From positions 160,001-224,000 of IMG/VR virus record IMGVR_UViG_3300009709_000001: DNA of 64,000 bases. One strand, written 5' to 3'. Both the position numbers and the translations under genes were made by a program. How positions within the stretch are numbered: the first letter of the stretch is position 1; each line of letters opens with the position of its first letter. The notes below the pieces were generated by a model. That model searched no databases. It saw only the letters and a list, made by a program, of their open reading frames with translations, and had not been told where the DNA came from. Positions 3,075-15,890 of the stretch are shown in pieces. This stretch comes from a virus (taxonomy: Duplodnaviria; Heunggongvirae; Uroviricota; Caudoviricetes).

Positions 3075-3078
3075 AATA

Positions 3079-3168
3079 TGGCGGATAGTATAGGATTTGA
3101 ACCTATGTGCCCCGAAGGACCCACTCCTTAGCAGGGAGGGACGATTAGCCGGACTCTGTCAACTATCC
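3079..3168 (-). tRNA. tRNA-Ser(GCU)
   Basis: Loop CT-GCT-AA, long variable arm, G73, CCA. Confidence 0.9.
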
Positions 3169-3247
3169 ATGAATTTAGCGGCAATAGGAAGCTAGGGTTC
3201 GCTTTCGGGAATCACCTAACTTGTTCCCCTATTGCCGGGCCCAACAA

Positions 3248-3568: not shown

Positions 3569-3594
3569 ATAGCCCCCATGGTTAAAATGTTGTT

Positions 3595-3671
3595 TGGCAA
3601 GCCGTTGGGGACTCGAACCCCAGCCCTTCTGACTCAGAATCAGACCACACTGCCCCTTATGCTACCGGCCA
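3595..3671 (-). tRNA. tRNA-Gln(CUG)
   Basis: Loop TT-CTG-AG, T arm, G73-CCA; acceptor stem weak. Confidence 0.75.
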
Positions 3672-3675
3672 CTTG

Positions 3676-4098
3676 TTAATTTAATTTCTGAGATTTCACG
3701 ATACGACGCATTTCATTCTCAATATCGCGTTTCTTCTCAGATTCTCTCTTATCGTATTCCTTCTTACCCTTTGCAAGTCCAATCTTCAATTTGAACTTAC
3801 CACGCAATGGATAAATCTTCAACGGTATAAGAGTTAGTCCGCGTTCTTGAGTTCTACCCATAACGCGGTTAATTTCTTTCTTGTTCAAAAGCAGTTTTCG
3901 TGTGCGAAGTTGATCATTATCAGCACTTCCCATCGAAGCACCGACTAGATATACTTCACCGTTACGGATGACACAATGTGTGCCGGCAATCGAACACACG
4001 TCCGATGCAATGGCCTTTGCTTCCCATCCTTGCAAAACCATTCCGCTCTCAAATTCTTCAAGAATTTCGTAATCGTGATAAGCTTTCTTATTTTGCAT
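3676..4098 (-). CDS. smpB: SsrA-binding protein SmpB
   Basis: NKKAYHDYEILEEFESG, RTRKLLLNKKEI, TLIPLKIY, GLAKGKKEYDKRE motifs; ATG start at 4098 chosen because the TTG start overlaps a tRNA. Confidence 0.95.
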   Translation of the reverse strand: MQNKKAYHDYEILEEFESGMVLQGWEAKAIASDVCSIAGTHCVIRNGEVYLVGASMGSADNDQLRTRKLLLNKKEINRVMGRTQERGLTLIPLKIYPLRGKFKLKIGLAKGKKEYDKRESEKKRDIENEMRRIVKSQKLN

Positions 4099-4116
4099 TT
4101 CAAAACTCGCTATGTT

Positions 4117-4191
4117 TGGCAAGGGTGGTGAGAATCGAACTCACTAACCGTGGGTCAAAGCCACGTATGCATACCATTGCATATCACCCCA
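4117..4191 (-). tRNA. tRNA-Gln(UUG)
   Basis: Loop CT-TTG-AC, cloverleaf, CCA. Confidence 0.9.
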
Positions 4192-4319
4192 ATTGTAGAT
4201 CTAAACGTATGGCGATCCCCGTGTCACAGGCCGATGCTTTCGCATCGGCCCGGAAGGATTGATTACCTTCATCAGTTCTTACAAACAGAGTTGACGACTC
4301 TCTTCGTACATGCTTATTC

Positions 4320-4394
4320 TGGACCCCCTGCAAGGAATCAAACCTTGACCTGAACGTTCGTAGCGTTCTGTTCTATTCATTGAACTACAGGGAG
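4320..4394 (-). tRNA. tRNA-Arg(ACG)
   Basis: Loop CT-ACG-AA, T-loop variant TTTGATT, CCA. Confidence 0.85.
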
Positions 4395-4843
4395 TTATTC
4401 TTAATCAATATTTTGGATTTTTCTACCATCTCATCTGTGATTGCAATTTTACCGCCATGAATTTTTCTATGACAATTAGAGCAAACCACAATACATTTTT
4501 CAACTTCTTTTAGAATAGTATCTAACGGATATTTTGCAATCATCCCCGAAATATCATATTCTTTACTTTCCGGTTCAAGATGATGAAATTCAATACACTT
4601 TATGTAATCCTCGCCACATACTATGCATGATAGTGTCGATTTCCATCTTAACGCCGATTCTTTATAATTGCGATTTCTTTCACCGACTGCACTAACAATT
4701 TTTTCTCTGTGTAAGCGATAAGAATTTTTAGATGTCTCTCGCCTACAATCATTGCATTGTCCGTGCAGTTGATTTTTAGACCTAGATCTCCATGCATATT
4801 GGTCTAGGTCTTTAGTACACCTACATTTCGAACATACTTTCAT
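4385..4843 (-). CDS. HNH homing endonuclease
   Basis: CxxC pairs, IEFHHL, CIVVCSNCHRKIH; stop codon lies inside tRNA-Arg. Confidence 0.9.
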   Translation of the reverse strand: MKVCSKCRCTKDLDQYAWRSRSKNQLHGQCNDCRRETSKNSYRLHREKIVSAVGERNRNYKESALRWKSTLSCIVCGEDYIKCIEFHHLEPESKEYDISGMIAKYPLDTILKEVEKCIVVCSNCHRKIHGGKIAITDEMVEKSKILIKNNSL

Positions 4844-4893
4844 ATTTATTCCTGCTACGAAGTATATTATATTCGTAGCAAAAATACAGTATT

Positions 4894-4969
4894 TGGTGGA
4901 GCATAGTGGAGTCGAACCACTCTAACCTACCTTATGAGAGTAGTGCATCAGCCGCTCTGCCAATGCTCC
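4894..4969 (-). tRNA. tRNA with CAU anticodon (Met or Ile2)
   Basis: Loop CT-CAT-AA, paired G1-C72, A73. Confidence 0.85.
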
Positions 4970-4987
4970 ATAAATTTTATTCTGATG

Positions 4988-5479
4988 CTAGATTAAACCT
5001 TGCACCTTAGAAAAGTCCGGAATAAACCAATCCGGCATATCTCTATTTTTCCATCCAGCAATATGTTGCTTATGGACGTTGTAATAATTTCTGTAAGATT
5101 GAATGGGATCATCAACCTTAACATCATCAGGCATTGCCAGGCGGAATGGAGTAATACCCTTGCTTTCAATATTCGGATAAGGTAGATTACGAATCACATC
5201 GTAAGCTTTATGATTTACCGAATGCTCATACCTATACATCCATTCGTAATTGAGCGCTTCAGCAAGATCTCTCAACCAAAGCCAATTATCGAGTGACTCA
5301 CGTATCCAAATTGCACTTGGACGATTAACGTGTGTCAGTTTATAGCCTGCATCAATGCCACTAACTCGAACTGCACTACTCAATAGTTGTGCATATTCGG
5401 TAACCATCTTAACCACATGGCGATCAACGTGATATTTAGCGTTGGTCTCGTGATCAGAATCGAGATAAAAAATGTTCAT
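4988..5479 (-). CDS. pyrimidine dimer DNA glycosylase/endonuclease V-like protein, copy 1
   Basis: MNIFYLD...DRHVVKMVTEYAQLLS...YRNYY family signature. Confidence 0.8.
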   Translation of the reverse strand: MNIFYLDSDHETNAKYHVDRHVVKMVTEYAQLLSSAVRVSGIDAGYKLTHVNRPSAIWIRESLDNWLWLRDLAEALNYEWMYRYEHSVNHKAYDVIRNLPYPNIESKGITPFRLAMPDDVKVDDPIQSYRNYYNVHKQHIAGWKNRDMPDWFIPDFSKVQGLI

Positions 5480-5484
5480 GTGCA

Positions 5485-5513
5485 ATTATAACTTACAGAC
5501 TATTTTTTTGCAA
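5485..5513 (-). promoter_or_regulatory. sigma70-type promoter, probably giving a leaderless mRNA
   Basis: TTGCAA-17-TATAAT, 5 nt upstream of the ATG. Confidence 0.65.
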
Positions 5514-5622
5514 TTGAATTTGATTGTACCGCCCTAATGCAATATACCGAAGTAGTAACATATACGTTGACCATAACCTACGGCAGTATCTTAGTTATGA
5601 TGCACTATTTGCAATCGAAACT

Positions 5623-5696
5623 TGGTGCGGGCTAAGGGAATCGAACCCTTGATCTCTCGTTGGCAACGAAAAGTTTTACCATTAAACTAAGCACGC
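5623..5696 (-). tRNA. tRNA-Gly(GCC)
   Basis: Loop TT-GCC-AA; A73 instead of the usual bacterial U73. Confidence 0.85.
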
Positions 5697-5795
5697 GAAT
5701 ATGAATTAAGATAGTTGAAATAGCAAGGACGGAATCGAACCGCAACTACACCATGGCTTGATTATACCCGCTTCAATCAGGCGCTATCTTAAACT

Positions 5796-5886
5796 TGGCG
5801 GAAGTGGACGGATTCGAACCCTCTAACCCATTTCTGAATCAAACAGTTTTCAAGACTGTGCCGCTCTCCTAGACGGTAGCACTTCC
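5796..5886 (-). tRNA. tRNA-Ser(UGA)
   Basis: Loop CT-TGA-AA, long variable region, G73. Confidence 0.9.
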
Positions 5887-5891
5887 ATATT

Positions 5892-5970
5892 TGGTGCCCG
5901 GATAGAGAATCGAACTCTACACTTTTCCACTTGTAAGGAGGATGGCTTCACCAGCTGCAACTCTCCGGGC
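5892..5970 (-). tRNA. tRNA-Val(UAC)
   Basis: Loop CT-TAC-AA, acceptor GCCCGGA/TCCGGGC, CCA. Confidence 0.8.
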
Positions 5971-5982
5971 AATAATTCTATC

Positions 5983-6056
5983 TCACCTCATGTGGGCCCC
6001 GATCCGACGACCCCTATCCTATCGAATAGTGCTCTACCTCTGAGCTAATGTGATGA
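5983..6056 (-). pseudogene. degenerate tRNA (Ile-GAU-like)
   Basis: Intact D arm GCTC-AGAGGTA-GAGC but decayed T loop, acceptor and CCA. Confidence 0.5.
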
Positions 6057-6082
6057 TTTTATGAAACTTTCGTTTCAGTGAT

Positions 6083-6189
6083 TGGTGGAATCTACGGGGT
6101 TCGAACCCGCCACAGGCGCCGCCTGCTACTCCAGATACTCAGTTCAATATGAAATTGTGCACCCAGGATTGAACTTTTCAACAGATCCC
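6083..6189 (-). ncRNA. tRNA-like RNA with G3:U70 acceptor and no D stem
   Basis: GGGATCT/AGATTCC-A-CCA, T arm GCGGG-TTCGAAC-CCCGT, non-cloverleaf interior. Confidence 0.65.
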
Positions 6190-6195
6190 ATAATA

Positions 6196-6270
6196 TGGTG
6201 GACCGCTCAGGTCGCGAACCTGATGTAAGACTGACCGTGACGTTTTAAGCCACATAGCATTTAGCAGCCC
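6196..6270 (-). ncRNA. tRNA-like RNA with G3:U70 acceptor, AAA anticodon-like loop and no D stem
   Basis: GGGCTGC/GCGGTCC-A-CCA; GTGGC-TTAAAAC-GTCAC; T arm TCAGG-TTCGCGA-CCTGA. Confidence 0.65.
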
Positions 6271-6274
6271 GAAT

Positions 6275-6745
6275 TCAAAAAGTAGGAATAAACCAATCCG
6301 GCATATTCCTGTTTGTCCATTTTGCAAGATGTTGCTTGTGAACATTGTAATACTTTCGGTATGCCTGTACAGGATCTTCGTCCCTTACATCATCTGGCAT
6401 AGCCAATCTAAACGGTGTAATACCTTTAGATTCAATATTCGGTACAGGTAGAGACTGTATCACATTAAAAGCCTTATGATTTTCGCTGTGATCATATCTA
6501 TACATATATTCGTAGTTGAGTTCTGTTGCCAGCTCTCTCAACCACAACCAATTATCTTGTGACTCCCTTGTCCAAATTGCACAAGGATGATTCTGATGCG
6601 TAATTTTATAGCCTGCATCAACGCCTGTCAATCTCACCGCTGTACTCAAAAGTTGAGCATATTCGGTAACCATTTTGACCACATGCCTGTCGACATGGGC
6701 CTTGGCGCATTCGTGTAAATCGTTATCTAGATAAAAGATATTCAT
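6275..6745 (-). CDS. pyrimidine dimer DNA glycosylase/endonuclease V-like protein, copy 2
   Basis: Close paralogue of 4988..5479 with HQNHPC motif. Confidence 0.8.
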   Translation of the reverse strand: MNIFYLDNDLHECAKAHVDRHVVKMVTEYAQLLSTAVRLTGVDAGYKITHQNHPCAIWTRESQDNWLWLRELATELNYEYMYRYDHSENHKAFNVIQSLPVPNIESKGITPFRLAMPDDVRDEDPVQAYRKYYNVHKQHLAKWTNRNMPDWFIPTF

Positions 6746-6757
6746 TTTTCTTATTAT

Positions 6758-6835
6758 TGGTGCCCCGGGAGGGATTCGAACCCACACTGTACGGTTTCTA
6801 AAACCGGTGCCTCCTACCTATTGCGCTACCTGGGC
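6758..6835 (-). tRNA. tRNA-Leu(UAG), short variable loop
   Basis: Loop TT-TAG-AA, A73, CCA. Confidence 0.85.
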
Positions 6836-6836
6836 A

Positions 6837-7280
6837 TTATTTCTTGACTGCAACCATAATTACGGCACAGCCTGATGTATTGTCTTCAAGGACCATGGAA
6901 TGAATTTTCTTATGGTTAAATTCATAAACGTGATTTAGTGATACTACTGCTTCTTCATCTTCGGCAGTAATGATGCTTGTACCCTTCGGTAGTACCACGG
7001 GTATCACAAAAGTGCGCGGTTCAAACACATTGGGATCTAATAAGTCCGTATGTGGCTCAGCACCCTTGCACACGCTAAAATATACAAAATCCAGGCGGTT
7101 TTTGTCAACTCCCACAACGGTTGCGATCCGATCCATCAAAAGTGAATCGGCGCTGCTGACAGCATGGACCTGGAATTTCTTCGGTGTATTTGTTTTGTAA
7201 CTCTGGAGCTTAATGCTTTCGGCATTAATCGCAATTTGTTCCGGGACATCAATAATACCGTGACAAACAATCTTATCCAT
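6837..7280 (-). CDS. putative 2OG-Fe(II)/cupin-fold oxygenase
   Basis: PHTD (HxD) and distal IHSM His in a beta-rich pattern. Confidence 0.5.
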   Translation of the reverse strand: MDKIVCHGIIDVPEQIAINAESIKLQSYKTNTPKKFQVHAVSSADSLLMDRIATVVGVDKNRLDFVYFSVCKGAEPHTDLLDPNVFEPRTFVIPVVLPKGTSIITAEDEEAVVSLNHVYEFNHKKIHSMVLEDNTSGCAVIMVAVKK

Positions 7281-7295
7281 AGATTACTTTCATTT

Positions 7296-7372
7296 TGGAG
7301 ACTCTGGTGAGAATCGAACTCACTCTTTGAACTGTTTTGCAGACAGTTGCCTTCCCAATCGACCACAGAGCC
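7296..7372 (-). tRNA. tRNA-Cys(GCA)
   Basis: Loop CT-GCA-AA, U73. Confidence 0.9.
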
Positions 7373-7383
7373 ATTGAATTTGA

Positions 7384-7457
7384 TGGGTTGAACCGGGGAA
7401 TCGAACCCTCGCCTACTGTTTCACAGACAGTCTTGCTACCACTACACTAGGAACAAC
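7384..7457 (-). tRNA. tRNA-His(GUG)
   Basis: Loop CT-GTG-AA, G-1:C73; imperfect acceptor and T stems. Confidence 0.75.
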
Positions 7458-7471
7458 ATCGAAATTAAAAA

Positions 7472-7589
7472 CAGGTTCGCAATTTATATCCTACCATTAG
7501 ACGACAGTAGCGACCAACTCTACCGCTGGGATTCGAACCCAGATCTTCTTTTTTACAGAAAGATTATTATTTATTGCTGAAACGAACCT
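7472..7589 (-). ncRNA. circularly permuted tRNA-like RNA carrying the CAGCAA module (Y RNA/YrlA-like architecture)
   Basis: Order 5'-3': AGGTTCG-TTTCAGCAA, anticodon arm (GTA), T arm, loop-closed acceptor, D arm, CGAACCTG. Confidence 0.7.
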
Positions 7590-7604
7590 AAAGTCGAAAT
7601 AAGT

Positions 7605-7707
7605 CAGGATGGGTGACTGATGGCCGGGAGTCGAACCCTATGTCACTGGCCCCAATGGCCTGGCCCGCAAAGTTTTGGCTGCGTGAATTGCTTGCTGCAA
7701 TCATCCT
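7605..7707 (-). ncRNA. CAGCAA-module RNA with T-loop
   Basis: AGGATG-ATTGCAGCAA...GGG-TTCGACT-CCC...CATCCTG. Confidence 0.6.
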
Positions 7708-7716
7708 TTAGAAATT

Positions 7717-7793
7717 TGGTTCCCATGGTCGGATTCGAACCGACACTGAACAGTGTTTGAAACTGCTGACTCTACCGATTGGCCTACATGGGC
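7717..7793 (-). tRNA. tRNA-Leu(CAA), short variable loop
   Basis: Loop TT-CAA-AC, A73. Confidence 0.85.
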
Positions 7794-7802
7794 ATCGAAT
7801 AC

Positions 7803-8006
7803 TTACTTGGCTGGTGCATCCGGAATGTTATCGCAAACACCAGTCTGAGTGCATCTATAATCGACACATTCTCTCAACTTTGGATCGGCCTGGCACTTCT
7901 TATCAAATTCGGCCTTTTCGACCTGAGCTGGCGTTGGTTCGCCGCAAGCTGTTAACCCTGCAATAAAACCAAGTGATAGAAGAACTGTAAAAATTACCTT
8001 TGTCAT
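7803..8006 (-). CDS. small lipoprotein
   Basis: Hydrophobic signal peptide with LTAC lipobox; Cys-rich; ATAAATA motif upstream. Confidence 0.75.
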   Translation of the reverse strand: MTKVIFTVLLSLGFIAGLTACGEPTPAQVEKAEFDKKCQADPKLRECVDYRCTQTGVCDNIPDAPAK

Positions 8007-8092
8007 AATTATCTCCGTTGTGTAGTTTGTCTATTGGACAAACTATTTATGATGCTTTTCTTACTATTTTGAAAAATAGTAAAATCTAATAT

Positions 8093-8168
8093 TGGCCGGC
8101 TAGGAACGACTCGAACGCTCAACCTTTGGTTTTGGAGACCACTGCGCTGCCAATTGCGCTACTAACCG
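8093..8168 (-). tRNA. tRNA-Trp(CCA)
   Basis: Loop CT-CCA-AA, G73. Confidence 0.9.
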
Positions 8169-8175
8169 AAATTAT

Positions 8176-8250
8176 AGGTGCCGAGACTGGACTTAAAGAT
8201 TACAGAAAGGGCCAGTCCGTCCGGCGGTTGCTGAAGTGCAGTAACCTTTC
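8176..8250 (-). ncRNA. CAGCAA-module RNA variant
   Basis: AGGTTAC...TTCAGCAA followed by GCCGG..GACTGG/CCAGTC.CGGC stem. Confidence 0.45.
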
Positions 8251-8261
8251 TTACTAAATTA

Positions 8262-8338
8262 TGGCAGGGCGGGAGAGATTCGAACTCTCAACGTGCAATT
8301 TTGGAGACTGCTGTTTTACCAATTGAAACTACCGACCT
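8262..8338 (-). tRNA. tRNA-Trp(CCA), second copy
   Basis: Loop CT-CCA-AA, G73. Confidence 0.9.
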
Positions 8339-8347
8339 ATCGAAATT

Positions 8348-8423
8348 TGGCTCCGTGTGAACGATTCGAACGCTCCTCACCTGGTTAACAGCCAGGGGTA
8401 CTCACCAAGAATACGAACACGGA
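8348..8423 (-). tRNA. tRNA-Asn(GUU)
   Basis: Loop CT-GTT-AA. Confidence 0.9.
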
Positions 8424-8437
8424 ATTATTTTATATTA

Positions 8438-8516
8438 TGGAGCGGGCAGGGAGAATCGAACTCCGCGAGCTACGGTGTGGAAGACCGTTGTGCGCCCTTT
8501 GCACTAGTCAACCCGC
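8438..8516 (-). tRNA. tRNA-Gly(UCC), atypical D region
   Basis: Loop CT-TCC-AC, U73; 5' half overlapped by the HNH reading frame. Confidence 0.75.
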
Positions 8517-8913
8517 CTTTAATTAATGCACCTCTTCCTCGGCCCTTATTCTTAGAGCCGTAGAATTCGGTTTGTGTATGGCAATTTGGACATAGAAGAG
8601 TTAAATTATCTTCGTTATTATTCCGGCTATTACCGTCAATATGTTCCAATTGTAATGTCAGGGATTTACCATTCCAGGTATTGCCTTGTCTACATGACTG
8701 GCAAGTGTCATTAAACTTTTCAAGAATATATCGCCTAATAAACGAACTAGTCTGTGTCTCACCCTTTAGGCCATTTTCTAATCCGTTTTTCCAACGATCT
8801 ATATATTCATTATATTGATGTGTATGTTGGCACAGATGCCCACAGAATTTATTCTTCTTGTTGGAGGCTTTCTTTACACCAATTCCACAACAAAGGCAAA
8901 CATAAATAGACAT
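8470..8913 (-). CDS. HNH homing endonuclease
   Basis: CQSC...LQLEHIDGNSRNN...LLCPNCH. Confidence 0.9.
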   Translation of the reverse strand: MSIYVCLCCGIGVKKASNKKNKFCGHLCQHTHQYNEYIDRWKNGLENGLKGETQTSSFIRRYILEKFNDTCQSCRQGNTWNGKSLTLQLEHIDGNSRNNNEDNLTLLCPNCHTQTEFYGSKNKGRGRGALIKGGLTSAKGAQRSSTP

Positions 8914-9088
8914 AACGCGATCTCCTGTTATGATTATTTATGATCGCGTGGTTATTCGTGCCACGCATTTATGAATCGGCGTCTGACTTCCGATACTTAA
9001 AGATAGCACCGGCATTTCATCCGGTTTGCATGATCAAGGCCTGGCTATCTATGTTATGTTCTTGCGGGGGCCGTAGCCCCCGGCTTGT

Positions 9089-10120
9089 TTAGACCGTTGC
9101 AGCGGACCAGATCATCAGGTTCGTACCTTCGGTCAGCTTGCGGTTGACGGAAGTCGACTGGACGAAGATGTCGTACTGGCCATGTGCACCAGGAGCAACC
9201 TTGCAGTCACCCACATGCGGGAGGCCGAGCATGTCACGAGCAGAGAAACCACTGTAGACAGAACCGGACTTCTTGTCACGGATTGCGATCTGCTTGTAGT
9301 CCTGGACCGTTTCGGTCTTGGCCAGCTGATAGAAAGCGCAACCCTTCGTGAACGTCACACCTTGTGCTTGCACGAAATCGCGAATTTGCACGCCGTCGTT
9401 CACAGCGTCGACGCGATACACGTCAACTTCCTGCGAAATGTCCACCAGTGCAGCCTTGACTTCTGCCACCGAAACCTTGCTCAGGTCGGTGTAGAACTTG
9501 TCAGTAGAGCCAACACCTGCGGAACGTGCAGCATAGAAGCCCTTGAACGCAGCCTTGGTAGACGCAGTCGAAGCAGCCATGCCGCGCTGGGTTTGCTCCC
9601 ATTCCTGGATGTTGCCTGCGGGGATACCGTAGCGCACCAGTGTGGCTGCATCACCCTTCGGGACACGGAACACGAATGTCCAACGGTCGGTGGCTTGCAG
9701 TTGCTTGATCATTGCGCCGATCTGCGGACCGGAATACTTCACGCTGGCGTTCTCGCCACCGTCGGTAGTCACAAAGACCAGGAACGAAACTTCGGGATCA
9801 GCACCGTCCGGTGCAGCCTGCAGTTGCTCGATCAGGGAGCCAACAGCGTCGAACAGCGGCGTACCGCGGCCTTCTGCTGTGTAATCAGCCTCGGCAATGG
9901 GGGCCAGGGCGATGATCGAAGAATTCGAAACCACAGTACGAACATCGCTGGTGCGACCGTAACCGAGTTCAACAACCGACACGATAGTGTCGATGCCGTA
10001 TGCCACGGCTTCTTCCTTGATAGCTGCGATGCTGTCGTTGTAATCACGTGCGGCGTGACGAGCAATACCGCTCATCGAGCCGGAGTGATCTCGGGCAAAG
10101 CCGAAGTAATTCTTCTTCAT
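9089..10120 (-). CDS. von Willebrand factor A (MIDAS) domain protein
   Basis: DHSGS, TPLFDA, TTDG MIDAS motifs; visibly GC-richer than its neighbours. Confidence 0.85.
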   Translation of the reverse strand: MKKNYFGFARDHSGSMSGIARHAARDYNDSIAAIKEEAVAYGIDTIVSVVELGYGRTSDVRTVVSNSSIIALAPIAEADYTAEGRGTPLFDAVGSLIEQLQAAPDGADPEVSFLVFVTTDGGENASVKYSGPQIGAMIKQLQATDRWTFVFRVPKGDAATLVRYGIPAGNIQEWEQTQRGMAASTASTKAAFKGFYAARSAGVGSTDKFYTDLSKVSVAEVKAALVDISQEVDVYRVDAVNDGVQIRDFVQAQGVTFTKGCAFYQLAKTETVQDYKQIAIRDKKSGSVYSGFSARDMLGLPHVGDCKVAPGAHGQYDIFVQSTSVNRKLTEGTNLMIWSAATV

Positions 10121-10165
10121 AAATGCCTTTCTGTGTGTACGTCACAATTAACGTTTACAGGACTA

Positions 10166-10194
10166 ACTATATAAGTATGTCAAATTTTTGTCAA
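10166..10194 (-). promoter_or_regulatory. sigma70-type promoter for the vWA gene
   Basis: TTGACA-17-TATAGT. Confidence 0.75.
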
Positions 10195-10218
10195 CTGATT
10201 TTTATCAATTGATTTTTA

Positions 10219-10339
10219 TGGTTCCGCCCCAGGGAATCGAACCCCGTCTACTTCCTTATCATGGAATTTGAATTTATTGCTGAACGTATCCTTGGCAGGA
10301 TCACCTCGTTTAAGCATGCTACCGTTACATCAAAGCGGA
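10219..10339 (-). ncRNA. tRNA(GAU)-like RNA with the CAGCAA module inserted between D and anticodon arms
   Basis: TCCGCTT/GGGCGGA-A-CCA, D and T arms intact, insert ATCCTG-CCA-AGGATAC-GTTCAGCAA, hairpin TTCC-ATGATAA-GGAA. Confidence 0.7.
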
Positions 10340-10344
10340 ATTGT

Positions 10345-10437
10345 TGGTGCCAGAATTAGATATACCGATAGCGATCGTCTTTCCAGCATAGAAAATGGAG
10401 CAAGATACGTGATATAATCTAGTGATTCGTACCCGGC
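10345..10437 (-). ncRNA. rod-like RNA ending in ACCA
   Basis: GCCGGG/TCTGGC-A-CCA closing a long irregular hairpin; no T loop. Confidence 0.45.
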
Positions 10438-10443
10438 ACTGAA

Positions 10444-10505
10444 TGGCGCCACGTCTAATCCAACGTATACGGCTATAAGACCAGTTAGTTACGCAGGGAC
10501 ACGGC
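10444..10505 (-). ncRNA. 62-nt mini tRNA-like RNA
   Basis: GCCGTGT/ACGTGGC-G-CCA acceptor, no canonical D or T arms. Confidence 0.45.
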
Positions 10506-10511
10506 ATTGAT

Positions 10512-10587
10512 TGGTGGGTTCGCCCAGCATCGAACTGGGATCTCGCTGCTTAAGAGGCAGGACTCTAGCCAATTGAGTTACAAACCC
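10512..10587 (-). tRNA. tRNA-Lys(CUU)
   Basis: Loop CT-CTT-AA. Confidence 0.9.
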
Positions 10588-11429
10588 GTAACTTGTGATT
10601 TTGTTTCTATTCCTAATGCGGCAAATTGTGCCCTTATCTCGGTATTCACCATCGAATAATACTTTTTGGTATTGATTAAATGGCGGAGAAGCATGTGTCC
10701 GTCAATCTCTGGCGGTGTTTCATGATCCTCGATAGAAACGTTTGCGTAATGTTTCAACGCATTTGCATTGTTTCGGAACAGTAAATCAGTTCCAATTATG
10801 TCTGTCGACCAATGCATATTCAATTGCACTGATGGATTCTGGACATAATCATCTAGAAAATCTATAACATTGAAGTAAGACTTCATGTGTCCCACATTAT
10901 CATGGGCATAGATACAATGCTTTCTTGATAGCCAGTTCGTAAACTGACTAACATCAAATTCGTGTTCTCCACCAATTACCTTCAAATAAGGTGTAGTTAG
11001 GTTCAGAGAATGATAGGGTACATCAGCAGATGTAAGGATTGCAGGAATAGATCCGCCCGAATCAGCGAATACAACAGTTTTCTTTGTTGTACCATTGGTA
11101 TATAACTTCTCGTTCAGTATGTTTGCAATACCGAAGAAGGAATCACATACACCCATAATTCCGAGATAATTTGCAATGTAGACACCATGGTCTCTATTTG
11201 CATCTCTAATTGAAACTACGTTTACATGCTGACCTAGTTTATTGAAAAAGTGCTTCTTCCAAAAAACAAGAGTTCTTGCAATGCTCGAAGTAGTTGGGCC
11301 ACCTAGGCCATTAAACTGAATAAAAGTGACAGGCGATCTATCGCTAAAGTCAAATCCTATTCCATTTTCATGAATAAAAACTTGATCTGTTGATCTTCCG
11401 TAATTAATAGTTTCCGATGTATATGACAT
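10578..11429 (-). CDS. hypothetical protein, possible alpha/beta-hydrolase fold
   Basis: 283-aa ORF; VVFADSGG resembles a nucleophile elbow; stop lies inside tRNA-Lys. Confidence 0.6.
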   Translation of the reverse strand: MSYTSETINYGRSTDQVFIHENGIGFDFSDRSPVTFIQFNGLGGPTTSSIARTLVFWKKHFFNKLGQHVNVVSIRDANRDHGVYIANYLGIMGVCDSFFGIANILNEKLYTNGTTKKTVVFADSGGSIPAILTSADVPYHSLNLTTPYLKVIGGEHEFDVSQFTNWLSRKHCIYAHDNVGHMKSYFNVIDFLDDYVQNPSVQLNMHWSTDIIGTDLLFRNNANALKHYANVSIEDHETPPEIDGHMLLRHLINTKKYYSMVNTEIRAQFAALGIETKSQVTGL

Positions 11430-11436
11430 CGACTAT

Positions 11437-11727
11437 TTAGTACGGAAATTCATACCCGTATTCAGAAAGGTATCTTCGTGCCTTTCTCATAACTTCCTCA
11501 CTAGGCTGAACTTTCTTAAATCCAGTCCTTAGAATATAGAAATCTTCGCAATCGTTGTCAAATAACTCTATGTAATATAAATCGCCGCTGGTTAAACCTG
11601 CATGCGAATTACATACAAATAATGCCTTCTTGGCATTCGATGCGATGCGTACAACTTCTTCGCATTCGCCCGAAAGCGACCAGTCATATCGATAATTATC
11701 AGATACGTCGATAAAAAAAGGTTTCAT
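11437..11727 (-). CDS. hypothetical protein
   Basis: 96-aa ORF filling the gap between tRNAs. Confidence 0.65.
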   Translation of the reverse strand: MKPFFIDVSDNYRYDWSLSGECEEVVRIASNAKKALFVCNSHAGLTSGDLYYIELFDNDCEDFYILRTGFKKVQPSEEVMRKARRYLSEYGYEFPY

Positions 11728-11731
11728 ATCT

Positions 11732-11806
11732 TGGTACCCCTGACGGGATTCGAACCCGCCTGAGTAGGTTGAAAGCCTACGGACCTCACCAGAAGTCGAC
11801 AGGGGC
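11732..11806 (-). tRNA. tRNA-Glu(UUC)
   Basis: Loop CT-TTC-AA. Confidence 0.9.
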
Positions 11807-11812
11807 AGTGTT

Positions 11813-11898
11813 TGGTACCCTGTGGGGGATTCGAACCCCAGCCCTTTTGGGCATCACCTTGAAAGGGTGAGGACCGTTGCCAGCAGTCGACACAGGAT
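11813..11898 (-). tRNA. tRNA with UUC (Glu) anticodon and long variable arm
   Basis: Loop CT-TTC-AA; variable hairpin GCCC-AAAA-GGGC; A73. Confidence 0.75.
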
Positions 11899-11899
11899 A

Positions 11900-11973
11900 T
11901 GGTAGCTCCAACAAGAATCGAACTTGTGAGACCCGGTTATCGGCCGAGGATTATACCACTTAATTATGGAGCC
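11900..11973 (-). tRNA. tRNA-Ile(GAU)
   Basis: Loop CC-GAT-AA (C33 rather than U33). Confidence 0.85.
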
Positions 11974-12185
11974 ATTGATTGTTCGTATTGAATTAATTCC
12001 TGAATTATTTCGTCTCTATCAAAACTTCTTATGAAGTATGCATCTTCTGGGCTTATAGTACCCGGTTGATAATATCCGAATTTAATCAGAAAATCCATAG
12101 GAAGATGCCTAATCCTAAAATAGATATTATCTGTTCTAGGGATGTTATATTTCAGAGAGACATATAATTCGTCAATTTCATTCAT
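11964..12185 (-). CDS. hypothetical protein
   Basis: 73-aa ORF, stop inside tRNA-Ile. Confidence 0.55.
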   Translation of the reverse strand: MNEIDELYVSLKYNIPRTDNIYFRIRHLPMDFLIKFGYYQPGTISPEDAYFIRSFDRDEIIQELIQYEQSMAP

Positions 12186-12191
12186 AATATT

Positions 12192-12266
12192 TGGTTGCCA
12201 CGGTCAGGATCGAACTGACGACTCTTGCCTTATCAAGACACTACTCTACCACTGAGTTACGCGGCA
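12192..12266 (-). tRNA. tRNA-Ile(GAU), second copy
   Basis: Loop TT-GAT-AA. Confidence 0.9.
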
Positions 12267-12370
12267 ATAAATTCAAACGTGTTGCAGCTCATCTGCAATA
12301 CGGACAGCTATTGTAGTCACTGTCAAAACTAGATTGATAAAAATAAGTTCCATTTTATTTCTTTGTTAGT

Positions 12371-12449
12371 TGGTCGGGGATGCAGGATTCGAACCTGCGA
12401 CCTCTCACTTCCAAGGCGAGCCGTCTGACCTGACTGACAATAATCCCCG
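12371..12449 (-). tRNA. tRNA-Pro(UGG)
   Basis: Loop CT-TGG-AA, C1-G72, A73. Confidence 0.9.
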
Positions 12450-12512
12450 ATATTAGATAGTGCTGCCGGCTTCCATAACCGGTGGAATCTCATTCCCTAT
12501 ATCTAACGTTTT

Positions 12513-12588
12513 TGGTGCCGGCTAGAGGAATCGAACCCCTGACCTTCTGACTACAAAACAGTTGCTCTACCTACTGAGCTAAACCGGC
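12513..12588 (-). tRNA. tRNA-Thr(UGU)
   Basis: Loop TT-TGT-AG. Confidence 0.9.
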
Positions 12589-12598
12589 ATAATAAATT

Positions 12599-12653
12599 CA
12601 GAGTACGCTTTTTTCACCAATTGAAAGTAGTTTAAATTTGCTGAATGTACTCT
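12599..12653 (-). ncRNA. minimal CAGCAA-module RNA
   Basis: AGAGTAC-ATTCAGCAA...TTTCA-ATTGG-TGAAA...GTACTCTG. Confidence 0.6.
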
Positions 12654-12663
12654 TTAGAAAGCA

Positions 12664-12738
12664 TGGCGCCTCGTAGGGGAATCGAACCCCTTTGATCCGT
12701 TAGACAGACGGGCATAATAACCAGTATATGAACGAGGC
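12664..12738 (-). tRNA. tRNA-Asp(GUC)
   Basis: Loop CT-GTC-TA, G73. Confidence 0.9.
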
Positions 12739-12745
12739 AAAGATT

Positions 12746-12943
12746 TTAGTAATCGCTATAGATAATGTACCAGGATTCCTCTAATGGAGAAATTTCAATA
12801 CGAATAAGCTGAGATCGCATTACACCAGAATAGCGAAAGATGTAATCTTTCTCGTATTGTGGCATGTATCCAGAAGCAGCTTCAATACTAAAGTTCTGTG
12901 CTTCTTTTCTAAATTCAGCTGACCAAGGTACTTTTCGTTCCAT
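12746..12943 (-). CDS. hypothetical protein
   Basis: 65-aa ORF between RNA genes. Confidence 0.5.
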   Translation of the reverse strand: MERKVPWSAEFRKEAQNFSIEAASGYMPQYEKDYIFRYSGVMRSQLIRIEISPLEESWYIIYSDY

Positions 12944-12962
12944 AGCTTTATTTTGATTTAAT

Positions 12963-13016
12963 CAGTGTTCTTATTTTCAATTACAAGTTGAATTTTTAAT
13001 TTGCTGAACGAACACT
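12963..13016 (-). ncRNA. minimal CAGCAA-module RNA with UGU anticodon-like hairpin
   Basis: AGTGTTC-GTTCAGCAA...TTCAA-CTTGTAA-TTGAA...GAACACTG. Confidence 0.6.
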
Positions 13017-13023
13017 TTAGAAT

Positions 13024-13283
13024 TGGATTTAATGAGAAGACTCGAACTTCCACTGCCGGCTTAAATCGCGTATGCTGGGTACCGGAGTGCTACCTAGAAA
13101 AACTTCGAGTAATAATTCTTGATATGTCTAGTTTACCTTTTCTTGCTCTCGACCTGTTCCGCACTTCCCGGACTCACAGTGTTTGGTTTTAAAGCCTACG
13201 CGATTGTTATCGATTACATTACTTGGATACGTTCAATACCTGTCCTTAAGACCGTACTAATTTTTCCATTACACTACATTAAA
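13024..13283 (-). ncRNA. 260-nt tRNA-framed RNA with a ~190-nt structured insert replacing the anticodon loop
   Basis: TTTAATG/CATTAAA-T-CCA acceptor, T arm GGAAG-TTCGAGT-CTTCT, internal helices AATCGCGTA/TACGCGATT and CCGGGAAGTGC/GCACTCCGG. Confidence 0.65.
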
Positions 13284-13285
13284 AC

Positions 13286-13361
13286 TGGTGCCAAGGACTG
13301 GATTCGAACCAGTGACGCATAACTTTTCAGGCTACCGCTCTACCGCTGGAGCTACCCTGGC
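13286..13361 (-). tRNA. tRNA-Phe(GAA)
   Basis: Loop CT-GAA-AA. Confidence 0.9.
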
Positions 13362-13371
13362 ATGAAATTAT

Positions 13372-13446
13372 TGGTGGACCGTAGCGGAGTCGAACCGCTT
13401 TCATCGACGTGCAAGGCCGAGGTAATATCCCGTATACGAACAGCCC
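13372..13446 (-). tRNA. tRNA-Ala(UGC)
   Basis: Loop CT-TGC-AC, G3:U70. Confidence 0.85.
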
Positions 13447-13454
13447 AATAATTT

Positions 13455-13544
13455 TGGTGGACAATGCAAGAATCGAACTTGCACCTTGCCCCTATGCTAT
13501 TAGGGACTTTCAAATCAGCTGCAGATCATATCCCCAGCTTGTCC
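13455..13544 (-). ncRNA. non-canonical tRNA-like RNA (6-bp acceptor and 6-bp T stem)
   Basis: GGACAA/TTGTCC-A-CCA; TGCAAG-TTCGATT-CTTGCA; three internal hairpins. Confidence 0.55.
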
Positions 13545-13618
13545 AAATTGTCCAAATTGTTGTCCACCGACCGTCGGTGTGGACTCTAGAATGCTCTTGT
13601 GACTGCATTTCCAGGATT

Positions 13619-13695
13619 TGGTGGACACATTGGGGAATCGAACCCCAGACATCCTACTTGCAAGGCAGGCGTTCTCCCAACTGAACTAATGGCCC
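13619..13695 (-). tRNA. tRNA-Ala(UGC), second copy
   Basis: Loop CT-TGC-AA, G3:U70, bulged acceptor. Confidence 0.85.
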
Positions 13696-13907
13696 ATGAA
13701 ATTGGAGATAAGTGTGGCATATCGGTCGTTCCACAAGCTTTCGCATTACCCCTGCCTCTACTATCATCACCGGCGTGACTACCCTACTGGATGTAATGCA
13801 CTTTACTTACTCCGCTACCTGCTTCCGCGGTAGCATATAACTATTTGCAGTTGCAATTTTGACATAACTATTTAGCTTTGTCAACTGGCTTTGCAACTAC
13901 TTGAAAA

Positions 13908-13997
13908 TGGTGGACCGTAATAGATTTGAACTACTGAAGCTCCTTGGAGCGCCGTCGTCAAATGACGGTGGGTTTGTCCGCTTCCCCTAACGGGTCC
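13908..13997 (-). tRNA. type II tRNA-like gene with UUG anticodon
   Basis: CCGTC-ATTTGAC-GACGG, variable hairpin GCTCCAAGGAGC, bulged acceptor, A73. Confidence 0.6.
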
Positions 13998-14003
13998 GTA
14001 AAA

Positions 14004-14092
14004 TGGCGGGGCCTGATAGATTTGAACTACCGTGATCTTAAAGATAGTCGATTTTGGAGGTCGACCGGGTTCGCCCGCTTCCCTAAGTCCCC
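14004..14092 (-). tRNA. type II tRNA-like gene with CCA centred in a 9-nt anticodon loop
   Basis: GTCGA-CCTCCAAAA-TCGAC, long variable arm, G73. Confidence 0.6.
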
Positions 14093-14098
14093 ATTGAT

Positions 14099-14186
14099 TG
14101 GTGTGTACTGAAGGAATCGAACCTCTTGCCTACCTCCCACCTTATTTAGGCCACTGTTTTACAGACAGCGAGCGGGGACAGCACAC
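14099..14186 (-). tRNA. D-armless tRNA-Tyr(GUA)-like gene
   Basis: GCTGT-CTGTAAA-ACAGT, 26-nt variable region, D arm replaced by GTCCCCGCTC. Confidence 0.65.
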
Positions 14187-14407
14187 ATATATTCATTGTA
14201 AGCACTTCTTACGAAATGCCTATGGTAAAGAACACAAAAATTATCACTTTTATGCTCTTTACCATCCGGTTCTGACTCTCCACGTTATCGCCGCAGATTT
14301 TATACCCCGAACACGCCCTTTTGCCGGATGTTTTTTACAGTGCCCGACGAGGAACTCGTTTCCTCATATTTCACACTTTCCAAACGTTGCCTCTATTACC
14401 AAGGTCA

Positions 14408-14438
14408 ACAAAAAAGCCGCTTAGTTTCCTAGCGGCTT
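14408..14438 (-). terminator. intrinsic terminator of the putative attenuator
   Basis: AAGCCGCTAG-GAAA-CTAAGCGGCTT then TTTTGTT. Confidence 0.85.
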
Positions 14439-14464
14439 CCTCTTGTAAAAATTCTGGATACTTT

Positions 14465-14620
14465 TTATTTGTGTCCAGACTCCTTATAACAGGAAGCCAT
14501 CCTAATCGGATCTTGGTCGAGATTACTCGCATTAAATCCGAACCAATAACCGGCGCAGATGCGTTCAGCGGTGTTCAACACCTCTGTATGCATTGTCGAT
14601 TTAATGGACGAATTAAACAT
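14465..14620 (-). CDS. putative attenuator leader peptide (51 aa, contains all 20 amino acids)
   Basis: MFNSSIKSTMHTEVLNTAERICAGYWFGFNASNLDQDPIRMASCYKESGHK; below the ORF-track size cut-off; its 3' end overlaps the antiterminator. Confidence 0.7.
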   Translation of the reverse strand: MFNSSIKSTMHTEVLNTAERICAGYWFGFNASNLDQDPIRMASCYKESGHK

Positions 14621-14699
14621 TTCGTAATCCAAAAATTAAGGTTAAGCTACTTTGCACGACACCAATTGTCATACAAGTTTATTTATCATCTAAGCCGCA

Positions 14700-14728
14700 A
14701 GTTTAACAGTTTATAGTTAATCTGTCAA
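14700..14728 (-). promoter_or_regulatory. sigma70 promoter (proximal) of the tRNA array
   Basis: TTGACA-17-TAAACT, followed by GATAAATA. Confidence 0.85.
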
Positions 14729-14789
14729 GTAATCAAGTTATCTTCTGAAAACAGATATATCACTTGCGTACATTTATTTATCTTCTGCA

Positions 14790-14818
14790 AGTTTAACACT
14801 ATTTCAAAACGGTGTCAA
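14790..14818 (-). promoter_or_regulatory. sigma70 promoter (middle) of the tRNA array
   Basis: TTGACA-17-TAAACT, followed by GATAAATA. Confidence 0.85.
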
Positions 14819-14867
14819 TCTTGGCAGTTTTTGCAAGATTTGCGTTTAGCAACTCTGCATGTGACTA

Positions 14868-14896
14868 ATTGTATGCTAATTTAGTTAAGGTGTCAA
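14868..14896 (-). promoter_or_regulatory. sigma70 promoter (distal) of the tRNA array
   Basis: TTGACA-17-TACAAT. Confidence 0.8.
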
Positions 14897-15098
14897 GCCC
14901 CAATCTTTTATGCTTGAATGTAAAGTTTTCTTCTGTCATCACCATAAACAGCACACGAAATTATTTATCAGGGAGACCGTATAGACCGGGGCGTATCGTC
15001 GTCGCAGTTGGCACTACGAAACTTTATCTATTGTTAACCCATATAGGCCTGTGATGGTTCTAATTTTGCGCTATATTTATATTAGTTGTCAAATGCAC

Positions 15099-15890
15099 TC
15101 AAACGAGTGATCCGCCAAAAGTTGGAACTGTTTGTGTCGGATGATTTCGTTGCTGAATCGCCGATGTATAAGTTCCAGTGTAGGTATCAGGTATAACGCC
15201 TGCCGTTACTATATTGAGTGTTATTGTAATTGTCAAGACGGTAGCACTACCCGCAGCAGCATTCGCTACCATACTGATTGAATATGTACTTGCCGAGTAA
15301 ACTCCACCGTCATTGGCTGTGAATAATGATACCGAACCTGTACCAATATTCGAGCCGCCAGTGCCCGGATTATTCACAGTACCACCTGATCCTGTTCTGA
15401 AATGACCCTGATCGTAAATGACAATTGTTCCAATGTTAGAAAACATTGTAGCCAAGGTATTATCTGCAACTGTACCGGCACTCTGACTTGGAGAAATTTG
15501 GATACGACCACCATAGAAGAAATAATTCGTCAATGCGGCTGCACTAGCGAAACTCACGGTTAAGGTGTGCGTCCATGTTCTAGGAGAAGTCCAACCAGTA
15601 GTAGATTTTGTTCCACCTGCAGGAGTTGTCAGCGAATACTGGCCTGCATTTCCACAGAAGATTGCAGCCAAATCAGTATTTGGGCTCCATGCAATAGCCG
15701 ATGTCAACAAACTTGTATTCGGTATTCTCGAACCAAGATTCTGTTGGGCAGGGTTTGCTAATGGATCATACCGTGTTTGCAAATCCACACCTGCAACTCG
15801 ATAATTAACAAGGCCGGCAGCATTGTTAGTCACATGCGGTGCAAAAAGGGTATCAAGATCGACACCCCCGGATTGAATATTGGCTGCCAT
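15099..15890 (-). CDS. virion structural/tail fibre-associated protein
   Basis: Gly/Thr/Ser-rich 263 aa, directly follows the fibre gene. Confidence 0.65.
   Translation of the reverse strand: MAANIQSGGVDLDTLFAPHVTNNAAGLVNYRVAGVDLQTRYDPLANPAQQNLGSRIPNTSLLTSAIAWSPNTDLAAIFCGNAGQYSLTTPAGGTKSTTGWTSPRTWTHTLTVSFASAAALTNYFFYGGRIQISPSQSAGTVADNTLATMFSNIGTIVIYDQGHFRTGSGGTVNNPGTGGSNIGTGSVSLFTANDGGVYSASTYSISMVANAAAGSATVLTITITLNIVTAGVIPDTYTGTYTSAIQQRNHPTQTVPTFGGSLV

Follow-up and report, generated by a model that had tools for sequence, protein, structure and literature searches.

The window examined here, 64,000 nucleotides (nt) long, covers bases 160001-224000 of one 385,394-bp virus record with terminal repeats (IMG/VR record IMGVR_UViG_3300009709_000001, Caudoviricetes), and its first 14 kb carry, on the minus strand, a dense tRNA array among whose genes stand six elements, E1 to E6 (Table 1). 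ARAGORN finds 29 tRNAs in the window and 54, together with a transfer-messenger RNA, in the genome as a whole. The six elements, which a preliminary description of the sequence had brought together under one formula as copies of a CAGCAA module, appear on balance to be small non-coding RNA genes of ~54-120 nt within the polycistronic tRNA array, judging from their sequences, each with a constant part, hereafter called the handle, and a variable cargo. None of E1-E6 is called by ARAGORN or by the Rfam tRNA model RF00005 at gathering score, and at that score Rfam as a whole returns only tRNAs and a GOLLD RNA at the downstream end of the array (RF02032, 212 bits, window 815-1233, minus strand), leaving the handle elements uncalled. 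Among cultured phages, no DNA-level match to the region was found beyond its tRNAs.

Table 1. Handle elements in the window and elsewhere in the genome, with the evidence or setting of each; positions are those of the window unless marked as genome positions.
Feature	Position	Strand	Evidence or setting
E1, long handle RNA	7472-7589	minus	R2 40.8 bits, E 9e-9
E2, handle RNA	7605-7707	minus	R2 25.0 bits, E 1.3e-4
E3, borderline candidate	8203-8251	minus	R2 15.7 bits, E 0.035
E4, tRNA-Ile(GAU)-like gene	10219-10340	minus	sequence and fold
Capped handle within E4	10277-10301	minus	AUCCU-G-CCA-AGGAU-AC-GUU-CAGCAA
E5, short handle RNA, 55 nt	12599-12653	minus	R2 55.4 bits, RF01414 26.0 bits
E6, short handle RNA, 54 nt	12963-13016	minus	R2 62.3 bits, RF01414 24.1 bits
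Handle element	genome 158433-158520	minus	follows tRNA-Tyr just before the window; strict scan
Handle element	genome 159459-159525	minus	follows tRNA-Tyr just before the window; strict scan
Handle element, long form with tRNA-like domain	genome 128426-128547	minus	upstream of the DUF2828 gene
Handle element	genome 128606-128715	minus	upstream of the DUF2828 gene
Mini-handle	genome 127317-127358	minus	5′ untranslated region of the DUF2828 gene

Read 5′ to 3′, a handle runs through UAAAG, the first strand of a 7-bp covarying stem, N-U-(U/A), the conserved motif CNGCAA, which lies after the stem and is single-stranded, the cargo, the second strand of the stem and CUG, with the consensus UAAAG-N5-N-U-(U/A)-C-A-G-C-A-A ... 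N5-CUG. The elements are spaced 9-15 nt from the neighbouring tRNAs within the phage tRNA operon, and the copies of this genome share the conserved flanks UUUCUAA and AUUUAAU. Of the heptamer TCAGCAA the window holds 26 copies, where 10.9 would be expected, and a scan of the whole genome with the strict pattern found it on the minus strand only and in the tRNA array only.

We then examined how far the family extends. The bare pattern gave about a chance number of loci in IMG/VR, and only loci with a closing stem were kept; about 17 of the loci had a perfect 7-bp closing stem and the G within 29-101 nt, the stem sequence differing from one to the next, and further handle copies were found near them. 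A covariance model, R1, was made from an alignment of 19 short forms. As it missed E2, E3 and E4, a broader model, R2, was needed, which was built from a model-guided alignment of 92 matches (family consensus motif uUaCAGCAA) and which gave nine matches on the 385-kb genome, all on the minus strand, with E-values of 5e-13 to 8e-3; the permuted E4 as a whole could be scored by no model. The search with a covariance model that the preliminary description had proposed thus finds the family in viruses beyond this genome.

Among 85 distinct family members, 99.2% of the closing-stem pairs are formed, compared with 33-41% in slid controls, and double changes occur in all seven pairs (211 cells, 58 in shuffles), although these pair counts lean towards structure because pairing had guided the choice of seeds and the alignment was model-fitted. 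The stems quoted in the preliminary description are correct and do covary. At its outer end, this clamp helix has, with few exceptions, an A-U and a G-C pair (the G-C pair in 84/85), while C15, G17 and the 3′ G are invariant in 85/85 and CAG sometimes has C, U or G in place of its A. Members have a median length of 57 nt and a G+C content of ~0.32, and 64 of the 85 are short forms of ~57 nt or mini-handles whose cargo is a hairpin or nothing. On this sequence evidence, the handle elements are one genuine RNA family. The reading of the short forms as armless tRNAs was rejected, since the A-U and G-C outer pairs are invariant and CNGCAA is conserved and single-stranded; nor do the short forms' lack of a CCA and the existence of cargo-less mini-handles suit a decoder.

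Five of the six elements in the window are real members of the family, while the sixth, E3, is borderline, with a motif and borders other than those first given. E5 and E6 (12653-12599 and 13016-12963 as transcribed) fit that formula exactly. E5, which is set off by 10 nt from tRNA-Asp before it and by 10 nt from tRNA-Thr after it, reads AGAGUAC, AUU-CAGCAA, an A/U linker, the hairpin UUUCA-AUUGG-UGAAA and GUACUCU-G, and its cargo recurs with other closing stems at three loci (L019, L099 and L105). E6 reads AGUGUUC, GUU-CAGCAA, an A-rich linker, the anticodon-like arm UUCAA-CUUGUAA-UUGAA (UGU), AAUAA and GAACACU-G, and relatives in L077, L036, L068 and L082 carry the loop CUUUUAA.

The long element E1 is a tRNA body circularly permuted and opened at position 26/27. 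In order, it has AGGUUCG, UUU-CAGCAA, a linker, an anticodon-like arm (loop CUGUAAA), a variable region, a T arm and a 6-bp acceptor-like stem without CCA, capped by the 9-nt loop AGUUGGUCG, followed by U8-N9, a D arm and CGAACCU-G. The match of E1 to RF00005 is partial (25.1 bits against a gathering score of 29). The order is kept in its homologues in four other phages (G002, G003, L068 and L105), where the acceptor-like stem has the cap RGUUGGUCR and compensatory changes affect every helix, including the closing stem, the T stem and the capped acceptor; the anticodons among these phages and E1 are GUA, AAC, UGU, UGA and UCA. E2, for which a homologue with 74% identity exists in the complete related genome G001, is composed of AGGAUG, AUUG-CAGCAA, an 80-nt cargo and CAUCCU-G, the cargo comprising a hairpin with the loop CCAAAAC, a GGCC hairpin and a T-loop-like UUCGACU within a GUGAC/GUCAC stem. 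The copy that had been placed at 8176 and judged the least fitting, E3, is indeed the weakest, at 15.7 bits and with no BLAST homologue in three related complete genomes. Its borders and motif had been set wrongly: the best fit, 8251-8203, is AGAAAGG, UUA-CUGCAC, 25 nt and CCUUUCU-G, so that the motif is not TTCAGCAA, which falls inside the cargo.

E4 is a real element with a permuted arrangement. It is a tRNA-Ile(GAU)-like gene with a normal acceptor stem, D arm, anticodon arm (loop AUGAUAA), T arm and encoded CCA, in which a 46-nt insert separates the D stem from the anticodon stem, placing the handle at position 26/27. This handle is a capped hairpin, and hence its stem partner lies upstream of the motif and not downstream, as the general formula would have it. 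E4 is conserved in three complete relatives (G001, G002 and G003) with the anticodons CAU, CAG and UCU, compared with GAU in E4, and the copies of this type show a compensatory stem change from AUCCU/AGGAU to AUUCU/AGAAU. In them, the 3′ CUG is joined to the 5′ AAG by 1-3 nt (two in E4) and neither is an RNA end; an alignment of four phages has CUG-CC-AAG, CUG-UA-AAG, CUG-UCU-AAG and CUG-CA-AAG. That CUG and AAG are kept here although they are not RNA ends indicates that the flanks form part of what is recognised and do more than mark sites of cleavage.

The cargo takes several forms, namely an anticodon stem-loop alone (E5, and E6 with its UGU-type loop), a permuted tRNA body (E1), T-loop hairpins (E2) and a whole tRNA with a capped handle inserted at 26/27 (E4); forms with a T arm, a capped acceptor stem and a D arm occur both with an anticodon arm and lacking one. 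It had been described as tRNA-derived, which is borne out by the loops CUGUAAA, AUGAUAA and CUUGUAA of E1, E4 and E6, by the T loops of E1 and E2, and by a seven-base loop with Y32, U33 and R37 on a 4-5-bp stem in 59 of 146 distinct elements, against 8.0 +/- 2.4 in shuffles. Between about one-quarter and one-third of these 59 loops are T loops (UUCGARU, UUCAAAU) and the rest are anticodon-like, led by UGU, UUU and GUA; many cargos among the 146 elements have no anticodon-like loop. Two fragmentary viral contigs, L052 (5080-5559) and L057 (1011-1307), carry tandem rows of four to five handle RNAs with differing cargos immediately before a DUF2828 gene, and one of these cargos is a tRNA body in which the handle stem replaces the acceptor stem.

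We next looked at the protein that might hold such RNAs. The preliminary description had suggested that the elements could be Y-RNA-like partners of a Ro60/TROVE-type protein and had seen none in the window; a Ro60-like gene does exist and lies outside, 33 kb before the window, as one open reading frame (ORF) of 469 aa with the Pfam domains DUF2828 and DUF7788 (genome 125897-127306, minus strand). Pfam TROVE (PF05731) has no match in the whole genome at E up to 1, and the profile of the protein matches a TROVE chain on the stretch of the MIDAS, the metal ion-dependent adhesion site, only (E 4e-4). In an AlphaFold2 model built with 33 homologues (predicted local distance difference test 82.6, predicted template-modelling score 0.84), the protein is predicted to form a HEAT-repeat ring with a C-terminal vWA domain bearing the MIDAS, whose motif, DVSGSM, is invariant among homologues. 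A Foldseek search of the PDB with this model returned Ro60/TROVE structures as all of its top 13 matches, over the full length (E 1e-9 to 7e-6, TM 0.47-0.65), from Xenopus, human, Deinococcus and Thermus phage phiLo. Hence, as modelled, the DUF2828+DUF7788 protein folds like Ro60. The genome also contains a gene for RtcB.

To see whether the handle accompanies this gene, 80 IMG/VR loci around homologues of the protein (46-81% identity) were scanned with R1. All 108 matches lie on the strand of the gene, and 79 of them (73%), of which 58 are upstream and 21 downstream, fall inside 500 nt of it; 58 of the 80 loci have at least one handle there. In the same loci, 481 tRNAs are likewise all co-oriented, but only 10% lie within 500 nt of the gene, and at least 16 of 30 tRNA-free loci have a handle within that distance. 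As the handle is near the gene and the tRNAs are not, the handle follows the gene rather than the tRNAs. In 45 loci from genome bins, whose homologues are 30-53% identical, 44 of 46 matches are on the strand of the gene and most are adjacent to it. The side of the gene varies by clade, upstream or downstream, so that the synteny is kept through rearrangements. In the reverse test, with records found by the handle pattern alone, the gene was present in 3/3 complete genomes and 4/9 fragments. The co-occurrence that had been put forward for checking is thus seen with a Ro60-like gene across these loci, and with rtcB in the genome under study. In that genome, the gene has two handle RNAs at 1.1-1.4 kb on its upstream side, and three copies in all are found within 1.4 kb.

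The third of these copies is a mini-handle of 36 nt without cargo, AGAGUUA-AAA-CAGCAU-12 nt-UAAUUCU-G, which ends 11 nt before the ATG of the DUF2828 gene and whose CUG abuts AGGAG. Close relatives have matches of 39-43 nt at the same site. This layout is as would be expected for translational feedback by an RNA-binding protein.

The association is also found in cultured phages. Homologues of the DUF2828 protein occur in 711 cultured phage records, among them Felix-O1-like, KVP40-like, Listeria, Staphylococcus, Campylobacter and mycobacterial phages, and some are annotated as "Ro-like RNA binding protein". In the Felix-O1-like phage EC6, the protein is 42% identical to that of this genome and the tRNA array just downstream of the gene contains four handle RNAs, and in the mycobacteriophage MiniLon three handle RNAs directly follow an annotated "Ro-like RNA binding protein" (L259 3934-4199, corresponding to MT889383.1 42122-42387); both proteins are DUF2828+DUF7788, not TROVE. 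The MiniLon handle stretch is partly annotated as a 47-aa hypothetical protein (gene 58), and in the MiniLon clade the handle ends are GGAC.../...GUCC-AG. Many Felix-O1-like records (for example, L260 5252-6026) have "tRNA-OTHER" or "tRNA-Pseudo-GTA" annotated after the DUF2828 gene, and these entries probably represent handle RNAs, the tRNA finders being misled by the anticodon-like cargo.

The known Ro60 systems offer a close comparison. Chen et al. 2014 (PMC4201824) describe YrlA RNAs next to co-oriented Ro60 genes in over 250 bacteria and in 22 phages; these RNAs mimic tRNA and have the 5′ motif GNCGAAN0-1G. TROVE proteins are present in a few jumbo phages (Iyer et al. 2021), and the Ro60 of Thermus phage phiLo binds two phage Y-like RNAs, Yrl1 and Yrl2, as well as the host PNPase (PMC12135203). 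Common to these Ro60/Y RNA systems and to the phage studied here is a HEAT-repeat ring protein with a vWA domain and a MIDAS, here as predicted. As in Y RNA and YrlA, the 5′ and 3′ ends of the handle RNAs pair, a short conserved motif lies on the 5′ side, and the RNAs are encoded near a Ro60 or Ro60-like gene on the same strand. E1, E4 and the element at genome 128426-128547 also possess a tRNA-like effector with a T arm, a D arm and an acceptor-like stem, as YrlA does, and in the long handle forms these follow in the same order as in YrlA: T arm, capped acceptor, D arm. The handle RNAs differ from YrlA in that most are of ~57 nt with just an anticodon-like hairpin and in that many copies per genome are scattered in tRNA arrays, and the linked protein is Pfam DUF2828+DUF7788, whereas the Ro60 family is TROVE. 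A scan of window positions 1-16000 with RF00019, RF02553 and any other Y RNA family, which had been advised earlier, gave no match at E up to 5. At related loci, YrlA matches are partial only (25.2 and 37.7 bits, where the gathering score is 69), the higher being that of the middle MiniLon copy, on the module of T arm, acceptor and D arm (model positions 23-89).

The RNA family and its covariation, the synteny of handle and gene and the Ro60 fold of the protein, all of which are observed, make it probable that the handle RNAs are Y-RNA-like partners of the phage Ro60-like protein, in line with the earlier suggestion, to which the fold, the synteny and the mini-handle lend support. From these, we infer that the RNAs are excised as discrete molecules, that the handle binds the protein and how the cargo may act. 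The handle would dock on the Ro60-like ring protein (DUF2828+DUF7788/vWA), and the RNAs would work like Y RNAs, seated on the ring and holding out a tRNA look-alike. The look-alike may recruit or trap tRNA-recognising proteins, for example host defence nucleases directed at tRNA or enzymes of RNA processing or repair, and the mini-handle over the ribosome-binding site of the protein gene would provide feedback control of protein synthesis. Since the anticodon-loop features are kept while the anticodons turn over, and since one member of the protein family has an apparent anti-defence role, recruitment or trapping of tRNA-recognising proteins is favoured.

That member is gp130 of Bas63, a Felix-O1-like coliphage, which is Ro60-like and counters the Ppl defence, and whose gene lies directly upstream of the phage tRNA genes, some of which, as annotated, the authors guessed to be Y RNAs (PhageMaP preprint, PMC11482910). 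Judged from the description in that paper and from Felix-O1-like relatives, gp130 belongs to the DUF2828 family; the preprint identifies no RNA, handle or binding for it.

Several observations weigh against a Y-RNA-like partnership. When produced alone, in T7 or from a plasmid without the Bas63 RNAs, gp130 restored growth on the Ppl strain (PMC11482910). The anti-Ppl activity at least, therefore, needs no phage-encoded partner RNAs, and the RNAs may modulate the protein and perhaps are not needed for its action. The handle motif, CNGCAA after a 7-bp stem, is unlike the Ro60-binding GGUCCGA or GNCGAAN0-1G in a bulged helix. The six copies of the window, though co-oriented with the protein gene, are 33-46 kb away from it. 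Among the 80 gene loci, 19 have no model match within 6 kb, and three more have distant matches only. Folding energies are unremarkable (z -0.1 to -2.2) and do not single the elements out, and the seeds of R1 were picked for a perfect stem and the alignments fitted to a model.

The handle RNAs might instead act as free-standing tRNA decoys for host anticodon nucleases or tRNA-targeting defence, the handle serving for excision and stability only. Canonical anticodon-loop features occur far above chance (59/146 against 8.0 +/- 2.4), the elements sit in the array like tRNAs, with 9-15-nt spacers, and the anticodons differ between orthologous copies, as an arms race would give. Nucleases are known to attack the tRNAs Lys(UUU) and Tyr(GUA) (PrrC, PARIS, retron Eco7/PtuAB), and UUU and GUA are, with UGU, the commonest loops, which also counts for decoys. 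However, decoys leave unexplained the clustering of the handle within 500 nt of the DUF2828 gene, where tRNAs do not cluster, the cargo-less mini-handle in the 5′ untranslated region of that gene and the invariant single-stranded CNGCAA, and many cargos lack an anticodon-like loop altogether. We therefore consider decoys acting on their own unlikely. Decoying of host tRNases, which the preliminary description had also raised, would be compatible with the partnership as a task of the cargo.

Less probable still is that the handle binds another protein, of the RRM type or from the host, and that it stands near the DUF2828 gene only through a common operon or pathway. The handle is built like the Dictyostelium Class I RNA discussed below, for which a single direct binder has been proven, an RRM protein, and gp130 is active in the absence of phage RNAs, both of which would suit such a binder. 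However, no RRM or other RNA-binding gene was seen travelling with the handle, though no systematic search was made, the mini-handle over the DUF2828 ribosome-binding site points to the DUF2828 protein itself, and the synteny of handle and gene survives rearrangements that place one upstream or downstream of the other by clade.

The handle could also mark permuted, split or intron-bearing tRNA genes, being removed or rejoined during maturation to give working tRNAs, with the Ro60-like protein and RtcB as maturation factors. The E4-type genes would suit this, with a full acceptor, an encoded CCA, varied normal anticodons and the handle exactly between the D and anticodon stems, as would the E1-type elements, which are exact circular permutations of a tRNA body, and the RtcB ligase encoded in the genome. 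Circularly permuted tRNA genes are reportedly found in the red alga Cyanidioschyzon merolae, in work dated to 2007 and ascribed to Soma et al., and as in those, the 3′ part of the tRNA body precedes the 5′ part in the E1-type elements, a loop connects the natural ends, and the new ends are paired. Unlike them, the E1-type elements have no bulge-helix-bulge, no CCA and an acceptor of 6 bp, and their paired new ends carry the CNGCAA handle, which is found also without a tRNA body. Neither bulge-helix-bulge nor group I intron features accompany the handle, and the Rfam scan returned none. Canonical tRNA-Ile and tRNA-Tyr genes are already present in the phage, the capped acceptor of E1 is 6 bp long without CCA, and 64 of the 85 members are short forms or mini-handles with a hairpin or no cargo, all of which makes a role in tRNA maturation very improbable.

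Finally, signals acting in cis within the tRNA operon, be they processing sites, terminators or insulators, or spacers that resemble one another by chance would account for the flanks UUUCUAA/AUUUAAU conserved in this genome and for elements that always stand between tRNAs or genes on the transcribed strand, but hardly for strong covariation and invariant core bases across very distant phages, a structured, conserved and tRNA-like cargo, elements in tRNA-free loci and the lack of a U run after the stem, so that this explanation can practically be set aside.

Among Rfam families, the handle elements hit only RF01414, the Class I RNA of Dictyostelium. Six members matched it at 21.9-31.9 bits against a gathering score of 41.5 (E1 at 21.9 bits, E5 and E6 as in Table 1, and relatives at 31.9, 28.8 and 27.5 bits), and four of the six scores are above the candidate cut-off of at least 25 bits used by Kjellin et al., with E6 and E1 below it. 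Class I RNAs are ~60 nt long with a G+C content of 32-41%, start with AAG and end with CUGU, have a 6-bp covarying stem with an invariant G followed by an unpaired 11-nt motif after the 5′ strand, and were reported to be absent outside Dictyostelia (Kjellin et al. 2021, PMC7919456). Common to them and to the handle are the AAG start, the CUG(U) end and a stem beginning with an invariant G-C pair, the phage consensus UAAAG...CCUG(A/U) being likened to the Class I ends by sequence. In both, an unpaired motif ending in CAGCAA directly follows the 5′ strand; the universal Class I positions U3, C6, C9, A10 and A11 are conserved in 79/85, 85/85, 84/85, 82/85 and 77/85 phage members (91-100%). The remainder is variable in both, with lengths of 57 and ~60 nt and a G+C content of about one-third. 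The handle linker in this genome is one base shorter than that of Class I, and whereas Class I genes have a Dictyostelium upstream sequence element (DUSE) promoter ~60 nt upstream, the handle RNAs have none and lie inside the tRNA operon of a bacterial phage, often with tRNA parts.

This likeness allows a speculative and rather doubtful proposal, namely that the handle and the Class I motif are the same protein-binding module, that the Class I RNAs, puzzling since 2004, are Y-RNA-like partners of a Ro60-like (DUF2828-type) protein, and that the module moved between viruses and amoebae. The known Class I binder in Dictyostelium is the RRM protein Rnp1A, and GuaB, NdkC, Rnp1A and DDB_G0281243 were pulled down with DdR-21, one of the Class I RNAs (preprint of Kjellin et al., bioRxiv 10.1101/2020.04.05.026054). 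DDB_G0281243 may be the Ro60-like protein in question, as a candidate only; a search for longer DUF2828 relatives found none, and a protein atlas returned viral clusters only.

Some further features of the array stand apart from the handle family. Directly after E4, on the minus strand, an ORF of 343 aa (window 9089-10120) starts with a MIDAS-like DHSGSM, has its own TTGACA/TATAGT-like promoter and has a G+C content of 52-58% in a neighbourhood of 37-45%. As a second vWA partner it was rejected, since it matches no Pfam family and a profile comparison shows no similarity to the DUF2828 family. Three tRNA-like pieces on the minus strand were not called by ARAGORN: one at 13040-13110 with the T arm GGAAG-UUCGAGU-CUUCU, and two with weak tRNA-Sec-like Rfam matches, at 8441-8517 (28.9 bits), which overlaps the end of an HNH endonuclease ORF (8470-8913), and at 14102-14187 (27.9 bits). 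Hairpins closed by GAUAG.../...CUAUC with an inner CCGG...GCCGG helix, at 12452-12505 and 9000-9056 on the minus strand, do not belong to the handle family, and a suspected second repeated motif, the CCGG...GCCGGCAG hairpins, gave nothing clear.

We found no paper or Rfam family that deals with the handle and its CNGCAA, with the short forms bearing an anticodon loop, with handle-tagged tRNAs, with the mini-handle or with the resemblance to Class I RNA, although an unnamed entry in a catalogue such as PMC10690425 is possible, and the pairing of handle RNA and Ro60-like protein has only been hinted at in print. If the handle RNAs are partners of the Ro60-like protein, a defined RNA ligand would be assigned to the uncharacterised DUF2828+DUF7788 family, of which one member seems to overcome a bacterial defence, and the "tRNA-OTHER" and "pseudo-tRNA" oddities of phage arrays would be modular adaptor RNAs rather than decoders. 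The Class I RNAs of Dictyostelium would likewise be given a testable hypothesis. The interchangeable cargos, which include Thr, Lys and Tyr anticodon loops, whole tRNA bodies and handle-tagged tRNAs, suggest a programmable display of tRNA look-alikes, and this would bear on how phages cope with tRNA-targeting immunity.

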